Virus genome (UHGV): UHGV-0335424
DNA length: 41,085 nucleotides
Reading direction: 5' to 3' (one strand)
From: a virus
Position numbers and translations under genes: made by a program. The notes beneath the pieces are model-generated. The model ran no database searches. It saw nothing but the letters and a program-made list of their open reading frames with translations, and had not been told where the DNA came from. This document shows, in pieces, positions 4,895 to 40,526 of the stretch (positions are counted from its first letter, which is position 1; every line of letters starts with the position of its first letter).

Positions 4895-4908
4895 GAGGAA
4901 TAAACAAT

Positions 4909-5796
4909 ATGGCACAAACATGGAATCCAGATAATGTAACAGTTTATGAAACTAAAGAGGGTAAAATCCCTGACAAGTATAATACTTTGATTATCAACGA
5001 CATTATGGAAAACTCGAAAGTAATGCAATTGGCGAAATACGAAGAAATGACAGATAAGGAAAAGAAATTTGAATACTTTGCTGAAGGTCCTGGCGCATAC
5101 TGGGTTGGTGAAGGTGAGAAGATTCAAACATCTAAACCTAAATGGTTGCAAGCGACAATGGTAGCTAAAAAGCTAGGCGTGATTATTCCTGTGTCTCGTG
5201 AATACTTGCACTACAAAATGTCAGATTTCTTCACTGTTATGCAACCTAAAATTGCTGAAGCTTTCTACAAAAAGTTTGATGCGGCTGCATTACTAAACAC
5301 TGACAATCCGTTTCCACAGTCTTTAGAAGAATCTGTCGTTGCAGCGGCTAATGTTATCAAAGGTCCTTTGACTTATGACAACATTTTGGCATTAGAAGAT
5401 GCTTTAGGCAAAAATGAATTTGAACCAAATGCGTTCATCTCAAATCGTAAAAACCGCACAGAATTGCGTTCTGCCGCTCAAACAGTCGGTACAAACGTTG
5501 AATTTATCTATGACCGCTCGGCGAATACGATTGATGGTCTTCCTGTGGTTGACTTGAAAGCATTGGGTAAAGGTGAATTGTACGCTGGTGACTTTAACTA
5601 TATGTTCTATGGTATCCCATTCAACATTTCGTTCAAGATTTCAGAAGATGCGCAATTATCTACGCTTAAAAACGAAGATGGCACTCCTGTAAACTTGTTT
5701 GAACAAGAGCTGGTTGCGTTGCGTGCAACAATGGATGTCGGCTTTATGATCGTCAAAGATGCTGCGTTCGGTAAAATTGAACCGGCGGGGGAGTAA
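4909..5796 (+). CDS. Major capsid protein.
   Basis: 295 aa directly after the scaffold gene. RBS AGGAGGAA. Conserved-looking motifs (GPGAYWVGEGEKI, MDVGFMIVKD). Confidence 0.8.
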   Translation: MAQTWNPDNVTVYETKEGKIPDKYNTLIINDIMENSKVMQLAKYEEMTDKEKKFEYFAEGPGAYWVGEGEKIQTSKPKWLQATMVAKKLGVIIPVSREYLHYKMSDFFTVMQPKIAEAFYKKFDAAALLNTDNPFPQSLEESVVAAANVIKGPLTYDNILALEDALGKNEFEPNAFISNRKNRTELRSAAQTVGTNVEFIYDRSANTIDGLPVVDLKALGKGELYAGDFNYMFYGIPFNISFKISEDAQLSTLKNEDGTPVNLFEQELVALRATMDVGFMIVKDAAFGKIEPAGE

Positions 5797-6074
5797 CAAT
5801 CCCCGTTATAGGCGTTACTGTAACGCCTAAAACCTCAAGCGCAGTTGCGGGGACTGCTGGCAATAGACAATTAACAGCCACCGTTGCGCCACAAAACGCA
5901 ACAAATAAAACAGTGACGTATTCAATTGCGCCAGTAACAAGCGGATTGACAGTTTCTTCTAGCGGTAATATCACTTGGACTGACACAGTACCAGCCGGTA
6001 AATACACGACAACAATAAAAACGGAAGATGGATCACACACAGATACTCACGTTTTGACACTGACTGAGCCGTAG
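5781..6074 (+). CDS. Big_2 (bacterial Ig-like) domain ORF with no start codon, in the -1 frame. Predicted to be a C-terminal extension of the major capsid protein via programmed frameshift at GGGGG (5787..5791).
   Basis: Frame 0 is open from 5781 to TAG at 6072..6074. It reads …VIGVTVTPKTSSAVAGTAGNRQLTATVAPQNATNKTVTYSIAPVTSGLTVSSSGNITWTDTVPAGKYTTTIKTEDGSHTDTHVLTLTEP, a textbook Big_2 signature. There is no ATG/GTG/TTG start and no RBS. The capsid frame ends GCG GGG GAG TAA inside a G5 run. Confidence 0.6.
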   Translation, partial: TGGGVTIPVIGVTVTPKTSSAVAGTAGNRQLTATVAPQNATNKTVTYSIAPVTSGLTVSSSGNITWTDTVPAGKYTTTIKTEDGSHTDTHVLTLTEP

Positions 6075-6089
6075 GAAGGATAGGTACGA

Positions 6090-6419
6090 ATGGTAATTAA
6101 AGATGACGTTAAGAAGCTTCTAAGCGGTTCTACAGATGATAAGCTAGAAGTTATCGAGAGACGAACTAGAGAGCGCTTAGCGTCATTGCTAGGCGTTTCT
6201 GTTACACCAGAATCACTAGAATACATCGTTTTTGACGTAACGAACAAACGTTTTAACCGAATTGGGCAAGAGGGCATGACTTCATACGCTCAAGAGGGTT
6301 TATCTATGGCTTTTCCTGATTCGGATTTTTCAGAGTATCAAAATGAGATTGACGAATTTAAGCGTAAAGATCAGGAAGAGTTGTACAAGCCAAAGCGAGG
6401 GAGGTTTAAATTTATATGA
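6090..6419 (+). CDS. Head-tail connector protein, gp6/gp15-like.
   Basis: 109 aa. RBS GGAAGGA. Resembles Phage_connect_1 (…LEYIVFDVTNKRFNRIG…). First gene after the capsid gene. Confidence 0.65.
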   Translation: MVIKDDVKKLLSGSTDDKLEVIERRTRERLASLLGVSVTPESLEYIVFDVTNKRFNRIGQEGMTSYAQEGLSMAFPDSDFSEYQNEIDEFKRKDQEELYKPKRGRFKFI

Positions 6420-6742
6420 GATTTACAGATGAAATTATATTTGTTAAACGTTCATCTGACTCTAAATATGATCCAGATCTCGGTGAGTGGGTTGAAGGCA
6501 AACCAGAAAGAACAAGAACAGAGGCAAACGTGACAGATATTGGCACTGATAGAAGTGTGACTATTTTTGGTAGTGTGGAAGAAGGGGCGAAGGTCATTAG
6601 GACGCAGCCTCTTTTTTCTATCCCTACATTTGACTATATCGAGATTGAAGGAAAGACTTGGCAACAAAAAACAGCTAGAAATCCAGCATATAGAAATAGT
6701 CTAATTGTGCAAGAGGTGGTTCTTGATGAAGGCACAACTTGA
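6416..6742 (+). CDS. Head closure / head-tail adaptor protein, SPP1 gp16-like.
   Basis: 108 aa with overlapping start (ATGA). Position and size fit. Confidence 0.6.
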   Translation: MRFTDEIIFVKRSSDSKYDPDLGEWVEGKPERTRTEANVTDIGTDRSVTIFGSVEEGAKVIRTQPLFSIPTFDYIEIEGKTWQQKTARNPAYRNSLIVQEVVLDEGTT

Positions 6743-6956
6743 ATATAAAGGAATCGATCAGCTGATGCGACATCTGAAAAAAGCAGCAACGCTTAATGAC
6801 GTTCAAAAAGTCGTGAAAAGTAATACTGCTGAAATGACTGAACGAATGCAAAAAGGTGCGCCAGTGGATACAGGTTACTTACGAAGATCAATAAACATGA
6901 ATCTTTTAGAAGCTGGTTTAACTGGTATTGTAGGACCGACAGCAGAGTACGCGCCT
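6726..6956 (+). CDS. HK97 gp10-family tail completion protein, exon 1. Joins to 7960..8067 after intron removal.
   Basis: Reads MKAQLEYKGIDQLMRHLKK…GPTAEYAP. In the unspliced sequence the frame ends YAPC*. Exon 2 restores the conserved [12 protein letters not shown] core. Confidence 0.7.
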
Positions 6957-7959
6957 TGCTAAGATAGGGCGGACGTATGGTAACATACGGTTTGGAATCG
7001 ACCAAAATCGGTAAAAATCTTATTATAACAACGCGCAATCGAACTTGGAACATGGTATAATTAGCTTAAGGAGGCGGTACCATGTTTGAAGTTATTGATG
7101 TGCACAAAAGAAAAGGAAATGGGTTTGATAACTTGACAGGGAGACGGTTCGGTAAGTTGACCGTGATAGGGCTCTCTGCTAAAAAAGCAGGCAGGAAATC
7201 TTATTGGGTATGCCAATGCGATTGTGGCAATAAACACCTTGTTAGAAGCGATTCTTTAAAATCCGGAAACGTTCAATCGTGTGGATGCTTAAAGAAGGAA
7301 CAAGATAGTCTAAACTTAAGACGCACTACACACGGAGATACGGTTGGTGGGGAGAATCGGCTCCACGTGACGTGGCAAGGGATGAAGCAAAGGACAACAA
7401 ATCCGAACAACACAAGGTTCAATCGTTATGGTGGCAGGGGAATCACAATGTGTGATGAGTGGTCAGATTACGAAAATTTTAAATCATGGGCTTTATCTCA
7501 CGGATACAACGATTCATTAACGATTGAAAGAGTTGATGTGAACGGTATGTATTGTCCAGATAATTGCGTGTGGATTCCTTTTAAAGAGCAAGCAATTAAT
7601 CGAACAAGCACTGTTTGGATTGAGTGGAATGGTGAGCGGAAAAGTATAAAACAGTGGTCTGATGTTTTAAAAATAAATTACGGAACTCTTCATTCTAGAT
7701 ATTATAGAAGCGGTATGCGCCCACCTGAACTATTTGAACCTGTTAAAAATAAGAAAATACCGAGGTAATCAGTAAAATTAAAAATTTGCTGACACCGTAG
7801 AGCATAGGGGTTGAACCTATGCTTTTTTGTATAAAAAGCATAGAATAAAACACTCCCACGAGTGGTCGACAACCATAAAAACATGGTTGAAAATGTATGC
7901 CGAACTTACTGGTAACAGTAAGAGGTAGAGGATAAAAAGCCTTTACGATAACATAAATG
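6957..7959 (+). mobile_element. Group I self-splicing intron (1003 nt) carrying a homing endonuclease ORF.
   Basis: Exon 1 ends in U (6956) and the intron ends in G (7959). Intron 6962..6966 AGATA is complementary to exon-2 5' TATCT (P10). Intron 6967..6971 GGGCG pairs with exon-1 3' CGCCU using a U.G wobble (P1). Splicing restores the reading frame. Confidence 0.65.
7082..7768 (+). CDS. Intron-encoded homing endonuclease-like protein, with a Cys-rich N-terminal region and an HNH/AP2-like C-terminal region.
   Basis: 228 aa. RBS AAGGAGG. Motifs FGKLTVIG…YWVCQCDCGN…SCGC and RYGGRGITMCDEWSDYENFKSWALSHGY…NCVWI. Lies wholly inside the intron. Confidence 0.55.
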   Translation: MFEVIDVHKRKGNGFDNLTGRRFGKLTVIGLSAKKAGRKSYWVCQCDCGNKHLVRSDSLKSGNVQSCGCLKKEQDSLNLRRTTHGDTVGGENRLHVTWQGMKQRTTNPNNTRFNRYGGRGITMCDEWSDYENFKSWALSHGYNDSLTIERVDVNGMYCPDNCVWIPFKEQAINRTSTVWIEWNGERKSIKQWSDVLKINYGTLHSRYYRSGMRPPELFEPVKNKKIPR

Positions 7960-8067
7960 TATCTAGAATATGGCACTCGATTTATGTCGGCACAGCCTTA
8001 TGTTAGACCAGCGTTTAATTACCAAAAAGTCAAATTTATGGCTGAAATGAAAGCCTTGGTGAAATGA
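7960..8067 (+). CDS. HK97 gp10-family tail completion protein, exon 2.
   Basis: Reads [35 protein letters not shown]. The spliced product is 112 aa. Confidence 0.7.
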
Positions 8068-8459
8068 TGATTAAGACAAGAGATCAATCGATTTTTGATG
8101 AACTTTTTAAAATATCCCAAAACAAACTTGGATATAAAACATACGATTACAAAACTTTAGAGGATGTTGGTTATCCCTTTGTGGAATTTGAGAACACTCA
8201 GACCATCCATGAAGTAAATAAAACTGACATTAAAGGGTCTGTGATTGTGGTTTTATCCGTTTGGGGATTACAGAAGAAACGAAAGCAGGTGTCAAATATG
8301 GCATCTGCTCTTTTTAATGAAGCTAGATTGATAGAAGCCACAGAAGGCTATTATTGGGCTTTAAATTATCAAGCAAGTGGAATTCAAGTGATGGACGACA
8401 CAACAACGAATACACCGCTAAAGCGGGCGGTTGTCACACTTGAATTTAGAATTAGATAG
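8064..8459 (+). CDS. Tail terminator / tail component protein (putative).
   Basis: 131 aa. Its start overlaps the exon-2 stop (ATGA). Sits between the connector genes and the major tail protein gene. Confidence 0.45.
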
Positions 8460-8469
8460 GAGGAAGAAC

Positions 8470-8982
8470 ATGGAAGCACTAAAAGGTATTGATGTCATTT
8501 TGCTTTATCGCTTATTGAAAAAAGAAACTCAGGAAGCTGCTTGGAAAATGGCATTTCAAACAGAACACGAAAATGGTTTATCAAGAGATTCAGACTCTAC
8601 AGTGACAAAAGACGGAAACGTTCAAAGTTTAAGTCCAGTTGAATATGATTTTTCGGCTACTTCAATAGTTGCTAAAGGAGATTCTCATGTAGATGAAATG
8701 AAACAAGCCTTATTAAATGGCGATATCATTGAAATTTGGGAAATCAACAAAGCAGAACAGGGAACAGATGATAATGCAAATAAGTACAAAGCTACTTATT
8801 ACCAAGCATATGTGTCTGAATTTACTCCATCGGCTGCTGCAGAGGATAACGTTGAATTAAGTTTATCATTTGCAGTAAATGGTGTTGGTCAAGATGGTTA
8901 TGCAACCTTGACAGAAGATCAAGCCGATGTTGTTCAATATGCATTCAAAGATACCGTGAAAGCAACTTCGACAGGAGCATAA
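8470..8982 (+). CDS. Major tail protein.
   Basis: RBS TAGGAGGAAGAAC followed by ATG at 8470. 170 aa, acidic. Followed by a terminator-like hairpin. The ORF-track start at 8431 lacks an RBS. Confidence 0.7.
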   Translation: MEALKGIDVILLYRLLKKETQEAAWKMAFQTEHENGLSRDSDSTVTKDGNVQSLSPVEYDFSATSIVAKGDSHVDEMKQALLNGDIIEIWEINKAEQGTDDNANKYKATYYQAYVSEFTPSAAAEDNVELSLSFAVNGVGQDGYATLTEDQADVVQYAFKDTVKATSTGA

Positions 8983-24584: not shown

Positions 24585-24658
24585 GTACCCTTAGCTCAGT
24601 TGGTTAGAGCAGACGGCTCATAACCGTCCGGTCGTAGGCTCGAGTCCTACAGGGTACA
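24585..24658 (+). tRNA. tRNA with anticodon CAU, either elongator Met or Ile2 (lysidine); not an initiator.
   Basis: Hand-folded cloverleaf: acceptor GTACCCT/AGGGTAC, D-arm GCTC-AGTTGGTTA-GAGC, anticodon arm GACGG-CTCATAA-CCGTC, T-arm GTAGG-CTCGAGT-CCTAC, discriminator A. No encoded CCA. Confidence 0.75.
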
Positions 24659-40259: not shown

Positions 40260-40268
40260 ATATTTTAT

Positions 40269-40340
40269 TGACGTGAAGCATCTGTGGTGATACGTCTGAC
40301 TTTTAATCAGAAGGTGCAGGTTCGAATCCTGTCACATCAA
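40269..40340 (+). tRNA. tRNA-like element, possibly a degenerate tRNA-Lys(UUU).
   Basis: Canonical T-arm GCAGG-TTCGAAT-CCTGT. Perfect anticodon stem TCTGA-CTTTTAA-TCAGA. Acceptor stem pairs at 6 of 7 positions and D-stem at 3 of 4. Position 8 is A rather than the usual U. Confidence 0.35.
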
Positions 40341-40526
40341 TTAGTAACCGAGGGGGGTATGAACTCGTGTGGTGCGAGCCCTAGGGAGGAACAGGATAAC
40401 CGCCTGTGTGTAGGTTGCTATTACATAGTTGGTTAGGTTAGATTGAGTTTTGGGATTTGGTACAAATGAATCGTCAAATGACTCAAGCACAGGATCGGAA
40501 ACGTCCCTGCCTGTGCATTACATATG

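Follow-up and report, generated by a model that had tools for sequence, protein, structure and literature searches.

A very probable mobile group I intron in the tail-completion gene of a temperate Enterococcus phage

Introduction

Group I introns with HNH-type homing endonucleases have been described in phages of Gram-positive bacteria, among them those of SPO1 and SP82 (DNA polymerase; I-HmuI), Twort, K and LL-H (terminase) (PMC3706429, PMC11878797). Introns have also been reported in the capsid and tail genes of Cluster J mycobacteriophages (PMC3706429), in Twort orf142, since identified as a tail tube gene (PMC11878797), in the capsid gene of lactococcal phage Tuc2009 (cited in PMC3706429) and in staphylococcal morphogenetic genes (PMC6507118).

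The DNA considered here is UHGV virus genome UHGV-0335424, a stretch of 41,085 nucleotides (nt) referred to below as the window. An earlier reading of its letters, termed the original prediction, had proposed that a group I intron with a homing-endonuclease open reading frame (ORF) interrupts the HK97-gp10-like tail-completion gene of this genome, and had described introns in virion genes as known but uncommon, which agrees with PMC3706429, PMC11878797 and PMC6507118. In the present analysis it was concluded with high confidence that the tail-completion gene (HK97-gp10 family) of a temperate Enterococcus phage is interrupted at positions 6957..7959 by a mobile group I intron carrying an IA-type extension. 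Unlike in SPO1/SP82, Twort, K and LL-H, the host gene belongs to tail completion rather than to DNA metabolism, and the ORF is without a sequence match to I-HmuI. The Cluster J, Twort and Tuc2009 introns have been confirmed by reverse transcription polymerase chain reaction, whereas the intron of the window is known from sequence and is likened to them by description; unlike the intron of the window, the Cluster J capsid intron was described as having a LAGLIDADG-like ORF encoded on the opposite strand. The literature consulted yielded no description of an intron within a tail-completion gene, nor of one from this group of Enterococcus phages.

Results

A 1,003-nt insert divides the tail-completion gene

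The ORF in the gp10 position is closed by a TAA stop codon at 6960-6962 and ends ...PTAEYAPC*, as given by the ORF list and its translation; the frame resumes at 7960 and runs to 8067, exactly as originally predicted (Table 1). Joining of the two segments (6726..6956 and 7960..8067) yields a gene of 339 nt encoding 112 amino acids (aa), and the intron-less allele of Enterococcus phage vB_ElaS_B1578 is also 339 nt long, the joined gene differing from it at 9 positions. As the joined gene and the intron-less alleles are of the same length, the insert measures exactly 1,003 nt. The intron-less alleles were found by megablast of positions 6000..8900 against phage genomes, in which two records, vB_ElaS_B1578 and 'Acinetobacter phage D2SVT' (PQ554527.1), were 97.4% identical in the flanks with a match about 1 kb shorter than the query. 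In both, the head-tail adaptor gene and the tail-terminator gene flank an unbroken gene of 339 nt annotated as 'tail completion protein', and the intron-less allele of PQ283533 reads ...GCAGACTATGCTCCTTATGTAGAATATGG... at about 7330-7370. Homologues that end naturally at ...YAPC, which would have counted against the original prediction, were ruled out by these alleles, which read through.

The 112-aa joined protein was matched by three models of the HK97 gp10 family, as had been anticipated: NCBIfam TIGR01725 (HK97-gp10; model positions 2-120 of 120, 66.9 bits against a cutoff of 30.8), PF04883 (38.8 bits against a cutoff of 21.4) and, from end to end, phrog_5 'tail completion or Neck1 protein' (E = 9e-30). 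Exon 1 alone covers positions 5-72 of the 78 positions in the Pfam HK97-gp10_like profile, while the joined product covers 5-78. The restoration of a 112-aa protein by exon joining is therefore supported both by the 339 nt shared with the intron-less allele and by the full-length match to TIGR01725.

The D2SVT record is labelled as an Acinetobacter baumannii phage. Over the head-tail region it is 97.4% identical to the window, the same value as for vB_ElaS_B1578, with which it also shares an identical tail-completion gene and the gene order. The host label looks doubtful.

The boundary of the insert is formally ambiguous by 1 nt (6957..7959 or 6958..7960), since T6957 is the same base as T7960. 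The former was chosen because only there does exon 1 end in U and the insert end in G, a rule that settles the U6956 and G7959 termini already read from the sequence. The TAA lies two codons into the intron, in frame with exon 1.

Splice-site pairings

The internal guide sequence that had been proposed was confirmed base by base. In P1, GGGCG (6967-6971) pairs with CGCCU (6952-6956), including the U6956.G6967 wobble, and in P10, AGAUA (6962-6966) pairs with UAUCU (7960-7964). The last base of the intron is G7959, and the final UG is kept in all 16 members of the alignment described below. Compared with the intron-less allele, a T to G change at 6953 completes a P1 pair and a G to C change at 7963 completes a P10 pair; these two are among the four substitutions closest to the junction, and by each of them a mismatch with the guide is replaced by a Watson-Crick pair.

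A covarying group I core bridges the ORF

Conservation of the RNA was assessed in alignment A1, which holds 16 sequences, namely 13 ORF-less members of the RNA family together with the window, Staphylococcus phage ROSA and Streptococcus phage Javan355, the last three with their ORF loops cut out; the covariation results in this and the next paragraph refer to it. Unguided folding with RNAalifold gave P3, P4, P6, a P7.1-type helix, P8, P9 and the 3'-terminal hairpin, with compensatory changes in 36 of 49 pairs. Within the P7 pseudoknot, covariation is free of exceptions at two positions (AU:9/GC:7 and AU:11/GC:5). When P7 was included, a structure of 55 pairs was obtained in which 96.2% of cells were standard pairs, compared with 34-41% when the 3' partners were slid by 1-3 columns, and in which 38 pairs change on both sides. 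Its covariation score was 0.634 against 0.07-0.125 in the slid controls, and not one of 500 shuffles attained any of the observed measures. In the row of the window all 55 pairs are standard, including those of P3 and P4, which bridge the ORF. A foldable P3-P9 core was in this way found as foreseen, with covariation across 16 members and the window pairs intact.

Further helices complete this picture. P5 (7018-7024 with 7748-7754) consists of seven perfect pairs on either side of the ORF, and all five pairs of P7.1 covary, the inner P7.2 hairpin differing in length among members. With a GAAA tetraloop in place of the ORF loop, the ORF-deleted intron had a folding energy of -85.8 kcal/mol, compared with -49.5 +/- 4.5 kcal/mol in shuffled sequences (z = -8.0), and its minimum free energy fold recovered P2, P4, P5, P6, P7.2, P8, P9 and the terminal hairpin. 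An extra helix between P7 and the P3 3' strand is characteristic of the IA type in the Michel-Westhof scheme. P7.1 and P7.2 accordingly mark the intron as IA-type.

Points that weigh against a functional group I intron

Several observations count against the assignment. The rows of A1 were partly picked by eye, and its three ORF loops, that of the window included, were excised by hand. The search with Rfam model RF00028 that had been put forward as a check was negative, the window giving no match at the gathering score nor at E values up to 10. Two ORF-less homologues did align to the full model (positions 1-253 of 253), an Oenococcus phage locus (L008) with 37.9 bits (E = 4.5e-8) and a Streptococcus suis phage locus (L003) with 41.1 bits (E = 2.9e-9), but both scores fall under the curated gathering score of 50 bits, and an ORF-less member from Clostridium phage phiCD211, searched as a short sub-region, gave no RF00028 match. 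A terminator-like hairpin at 7799-7825 competes with P7 and P7.2, is favoured in the centroid fold and could reduce splicing. Finally, catalysis of splicing by the window copy is inferred from its DNA.

The negative result of RF00028 is most likely due to the 720-nt ORF loop in L5, which splits the core, and the signal of this model is likewise reported to be lost where a nuclease loop interrupts the ribozyme (PMC11878797). A gathering score is set in the curation of one particular model and is no biological definition. When 6 and then 13 loci were searched whole with Rfam, RF00028 remained blank, even at the annotated intron of phiCD211, and short sub-regions alone gave matches, because the filters grow stricter with more sequence.

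A large RNA family in split phage genes

By blastn, the last ~200 nt of the intron (7746..7959) matched about 70 phage records at 66-93% identity. At every locus with named flanking genes the match separates two halves of one gene; some loci have hypothetical proteins only. The split gene is the large terminase in Staphylococcus phages 6ec, S-CoN_Ph2 and SpP and Arcanobacterium phage TPWB06, the tape measure in Streptococcus phages Javan355 and phiJH1301-1 and in Clostridium phage phiCD211, the DNA polymerase in Alicyclobacillus phage MMB025, and a gene in the tail-completion position in Staphylococcus phages ROSA (ORF049/ORF019) and BE20 and Oenococcus phage Krappator149. The match usually lies directly 3' of an ORF annotated as HNH or homing endonuclease, and several members were recognised as ORF-less because their 5' and 3' arms are almost adjacent. 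The invariant motif GGATAAAAAGCC-N5-GATAAC was found in at least 119 viral contigs, and 7 of 128 distinct family members occupy the gp10-type site. As essential genes (terminase, tape measure, polymerase) are split in phages deposited as isolated and propagated viruses, for example 6ec, PT1-1, SpP and Krappator149, the family probably splices in vivo.

Two further loci of this family were observed. The tape-measure gene of phiCD211 apparently contains two different group I introns (1745-2015 and 2040-2304) with an exon of ~25 nt between them, the first being a member of the RNA family of the window that is missed by Rfam and the second the depositor-annotated Intron_gpI (RF00028, 41.7 bits). 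Contig IMGVR_UViG_3300026549_000061 has three copies of the family 3' motif within ~1.4 kb on one strand (422-1857), which suggests several family introns in one gene region.

Signatures of mobility

The same intron, here 1,009 nt long, occupies this site in a prophage of Enterococcus dongliensis K4, where P1 and P10 are identical in sequence to those of the window. Between that copy and the window, the intron arms and the ORF are 85-89% identical, compared with 56-66% for the exons and 62-70% for the neighbouring genes; as intron identity is far above exon identity, the intron is younger than its host gene and moves independently of it. Compensatory changes in P6, P7.1 and the terminal hairpin keep the helices in this ~12-15% diverged copy, indicating selection on the RNA structure. 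The exact 228-aa protein was present in 219 blocks of the assembly collection at a constant position, with differing capsid and tape-measure modules beside it.

Bases at -10, -7, -4 and +4 relative to the junction were common to all seven intron-bearing alleles and distinct from the intron-less alleles, and the markers at +15, +21, +33, +54 and +63 differed from contig to contig among the intron-bearing alleles. One contig (L143) was of the intron-less type at all five of these markers, and its tract therefore ends between +4 and +15. This gradient is the pattern that would be expected of variable-length co-conversion tracts in homing. Background divergence from vB_ElaS_B1578 is patchy, with 6 substitutions in 29 nt at 8135-8163 and 7 in 100 nt at 8400-8500, and the substitution cluster at the junction is therefore to be read with caution.

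A sharp mosaic boundary was also seen when ~4900-6300 of the window was compared with vB_ElaS_B1578, with 16-42 differences per 100 nt upstream of ~6300 (capsid region) and fewer than ~1 per 100 nt downstream of it. Contigs with the exact ORF carry three different capsid families beside the same intron-bearing gene.

The Enterococcus 5' splice site lies at phase 0, between codons (6956/6957 in the window), and that of the Staphylococcus and Oenococcus copies 1 nt upstream, at phase 2, at the homologous site (ROSA, ~1346; Oenococcus phage locus L008, ~1716; L022; L129). The shift could have arisen from independent insertions or from sliding of the intron boundary.

The endonuclease-like ORF

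The original prediction had placed a 228-aa ORF between non-coding flanks of 125 and 191 nt. The coordinates and both lengths hold, but the simple division into ribozyme and ORF does not, as the final 21 nt of its coding sequence (7748-7768) double as the P5 and P4 3' strands and the start of P6. As to its identification as a homing endonuclease, the ORF is indeed intact, and the label derives from context and from the name of a PHROG family, with no curated HNH model behind it. Matches were obtained to PHROG 374 and 3377 (both 'HNH endonuclease'; E = 2e-76 and 1e-44), and more than 7,900 relatives were found, almost all unnamed. The sole Pfam match was an N-terminal CapR-type domain, over four invariant cysteines (C44, C46, C67 and C69). 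No Pfam HNH family was detected in the ORF or in any of 41 homologues, and the ORF had neither an NCBIfam match nor a sequence match among Protein Data Bank structures, I-HmuI included.

AlphaFold models had a confidence (predicted local distance difference test, pLDDT) of 86 for the full chain and 92 for residues 88-228. They predict a strand-strand-helix (beta-beta-alpha) element at residues 146-173 that bears the invariant residues R150, N161 and N173, of which the arginine R150 stands at the position of the first histidine of HNH. The C-terminal part is helix-turn-helix-like, and a distant fold match to PacI was seen. The nuclease class is weakly indicated by the PHROG label and this fold match, and the ORF product is best taken as a putative homing endonuclease of a distant beta-beta-alpha-Me type. 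An alternative, that the intron is real while the ORF product lacks, or has lost, DNA endonuclease function and is instead a DNA-binding or maturase-like protein, the element being spread only by ordinary recombination, is considered quite unlikely.

The extended -10-like box and a strong Shine-Dalgarno sequence 5' of the ORF lie inside L5, suggesting that the ORF is transcribed from within the intron. TGNTATAAT occurs 7 times in the window, where ~3 occurrences are expected by chance, and TATAAT boxes are likewise located 5' of the ORFs in Javan355, ROSA, BE20 and the E. dongliensis copy.

A terminator-like hairpin and the question of decay

The hairpin introduced above has a stem at 7799-7825 followed by a T-run, and takes up both GCAUAGG, the P7 5' strand, and the 5' strand of P7.2. 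GCAUAG/CUAUGC occurs in a triple arrangement at 7802-7807, 7817-7822 and 7838-7843, in addition to the P7 3' strand at 7896-7900. The same hairpin arrangement was present in 10 of 53 distinct members, comprising 8 of the 32 with an L5 insert and 2 of the 21 without an ORF, a difference too weak to claim that the hairpin is tied to the presence of an ORF. A rho-independent terminator is annotated at the equivalent place in Staphylococcus phage 6ec.

A small outside chance is given to a more far-reaching proposal, that either the ORF is a beta-beta-alpha-Me catalytic variant in which arginine replaces the general-base histidine, or the terminator-like hairpin acts as a switch. If true, the former would be a new class of homing endonuclease; the latter would end endonuclease transcripts by sequestering the P7 5' strand, making endonuclease expression and splicing exclusive in any one RNA.

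The hairpin might instead indicate a decayed intron in a defective prophage, one that splices poorly, for example because the P7 strand is trapped, and leaves the tail-completion gene a pseudogene. The favouring of the hairpin in the centroid fold and the prophage features of the window, among them a minus-strand ORF of integrase size, are in line with this explanation. It is nevertheless held to be very unlikely: the helices of the window are all intact, as is the ORF, whose protein is found unchanged throughout the 219 collection blocks; the E. dongliensis copy has kept its helices despite its divergence; and the same terminator-like arrangement is found where members interrupt essential genes in isolated phages (loci L004 and L009).

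A split gene without splicing

Reassembly of the separate products is known for some phage genes that mobile endonuclease genes have split. By analogy, a free-standing endonuclease gene with its flanks could have been inserted here, the 78-aa and 36-aa pieces being translated apart and then reassembling. An in-frame ATG (7957-7959) does stand directly before exon 2, with an ATG there in the E. dongliensis copy also, and the ORF has a promoter-like box and ribosome-binding site of its own. However, no Shine-Dalgarno sequence is found at a usable distance 5' of ATG 7957, the nearest GAGG being more than 22 nt away, and the 3' UG is kept across members in unrelated host genes and frames, often as UUG and out of frame. 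It is because of this conservation that the UG is read as the intron end and not as part of a start codon. This explanation furthermore leaves unaccounted for the 55-pair covarying structure that joins the flanks across the ORF, the P1 and P10 complementarity to both exons and the ORF-less element at the same site in L008, and it is regarded as scarcely credible. Group II intron and intein readings were rejected in view of the in-frame stop two codons in, the lack of a reverse-transcriptase ORF and the group I core.

Features of the window

The coordinates of the intron and its host gene are collected in Table 1. Elsewhere in the window, transfer RNA genes for Met (CAT) and Lys (TTT) were found at 24585-24658 and 40268-40341, the second scoring lower against the Rfam model (46.9 bits).

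Table 1. Features of the very probable group I intron and its host gene (positions in the window).
Feature	Position	Strand	Remarks
Exon 1, HK97-gp10-family tail-completion gene, 77 codons	6726..6956	+	Last 5 nt CGCCU (6952-6956) form the P1 5' strand
Group I intron, 1,003 nt	6957..7959	+	Missing in phages otherwise 97% identical
Internal guide sequence	6962..6971	+	AGAUA 6962-6966 (P10, with exon 2); GGGCG 6967-6971 (P1, with exon 1)
P2 hairpin CGUAUG-GUAA-CAUACG	6974..6989	+	
P3 5' strand	6998..7004	+	Pairs across the ORF with 7863-7869; 7/7 pairs with compensatory changes
P4 5' strand, J4/5 and P5 5' strand	7008..7024	+	P4 7008-7013; J4/5 AAAA 7014-7017; P5 UCUUAUU 7018-7024
Extended -10-like box TGGTATAAT and Shine-Dalgarno AAGGAGG	7053..7074	+	7053-7061 and 7068-7074; inside L5, 5' of the ORF
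Putative homing endonuclease ORF, 228 aa, in L5	7082..7768	+	phrog_374 'HNH endonuclease'
P5 3' strand AAUAAGA and P4 3' strand UACCGA	7748..7763	+	7748-7754 and 7758-7763; both within the ORF end
P6 hairpin	7764..7796	+	
P7 5' strand	7800..7806	+	G7800, bulged A7801, GCAUA 7802-7806; pairs with 7896-7901, pseudoknot with P3
P7.1 enclosing P7.2 hairpin	7807..7856	+	7807-7811 with 7852-7856, enclosing 7817-7827 with 7833-7843; IA-type extension, P7 to P3'
P3 3' strand	7863..7869	+	
P8 hairpin	7870..7889	+	
P7 3' strand UAUGCC	7896..7901	+	
P9 hairpin CUUACUG-GUAA-CAGUAAG	7905..7922	+	
Terminal hairpin, GAUAAC and terminal G	7925..7959	+	7925-7931 with 7940-7946, invariant loop GGAUAAAAAGCC; invariant GAUAAC; G7959
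Exon 2, 35 codons + stop	7960..8067	+	First 5 nt UAUCU form the P10 strand

Discussion

The mechanism proposed for the mobile group I intron is as follows. The late transcript would fold into the P1-P10 ribozyme with the ORF looped out of P5. Exogenous guanosine would attack after U6956 in the U.G wobble of P1, and the 3' OH of exon 1 would then attack after G7959 while P10 aligns exon 2, the ligated exons serving as messenger RNA for the whole 112-aa protein. On unspliced RNA, translation would end at the TAA, two codons past the end of exon 1. The product of the 228-aa ORF, most likely a site-specific DNA endonuclease, would be expressed from a TGnTATAAT promoter-like box and a ribosome-binding site of its own, with a cut predicted in intron-less alleles near the junction of ...GACTATGCTCCT and TATGTAGAA...; we infer both this nuclease activity and its target.

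In six assemblies with the exact ORF (L143-L148), gene callers give exon 1 as a 78-aa gene or nothing, and exon 2 is never called. Recognition of the intron therefore corrects the truncated 78-aa annotation of the tail-completion gene in a widespread Enterococcus prophage type, and similar split genes in phages of Staphylococcus, Streptococcus, Oenococcus, Clostridium/Clostridioides and Alicyclobacillus call for it too. With a family-specific covariance model, many phage introns that now lack annotation would be recovered. A natural donor and recipient pair for homing experiments in Enterococcus is provided by the window and the intron-less vB_ElaS_B1578 and D2SVT, with flanks 97% identical, and the ORF offers an entry to a very large putative nuclease family without a solved structure. 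The current understanding of group I introns is unchanged by these findings.

Likenesses to the described systems are extensive. As in the SPO1/SP82, Twort, K and LL-H introns, the P1-P10 plan is accompanied by P7.1/P7.2 between P7 and P3', the ORF is looped from a peripheral helix with its end overlapping core strands, and the site lies in highly conserved codons of an essential gene, with presence polymorphic among close relatives. With the Cluster J, Twort orf142 and Tuc2009 introns it shares a location in a late virion-assembly gene, an exon 1 that ends in U and an intron that ends in G, and some of these also carry endonuclease genes. In the unannotated family members of ROSA, BE20, Krappator149, E. 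dongliensis, 6ec, Javan355, phiJH1301-1 and MMB025, the ribozyme arms are homologous to those of the window and form the same helices. In ROSA, Krappator149, L022, L129 and E. dongliensis the intron occupies the same conserved site of a gp10-like gene, between ...YA. and [Y/F].E.GT..., and the ROSA ORF is related to that of the window by a DNA match over its 3' half. Identity between the window copy and the Staphylococcus and Oenococcus copies is only ~66-80%, and some copies are without an ORF. The intron of the window is in these respects a new, unannotated case of a familiar type of element, belonging to a large family that is under-detected by the standard Rfam model.

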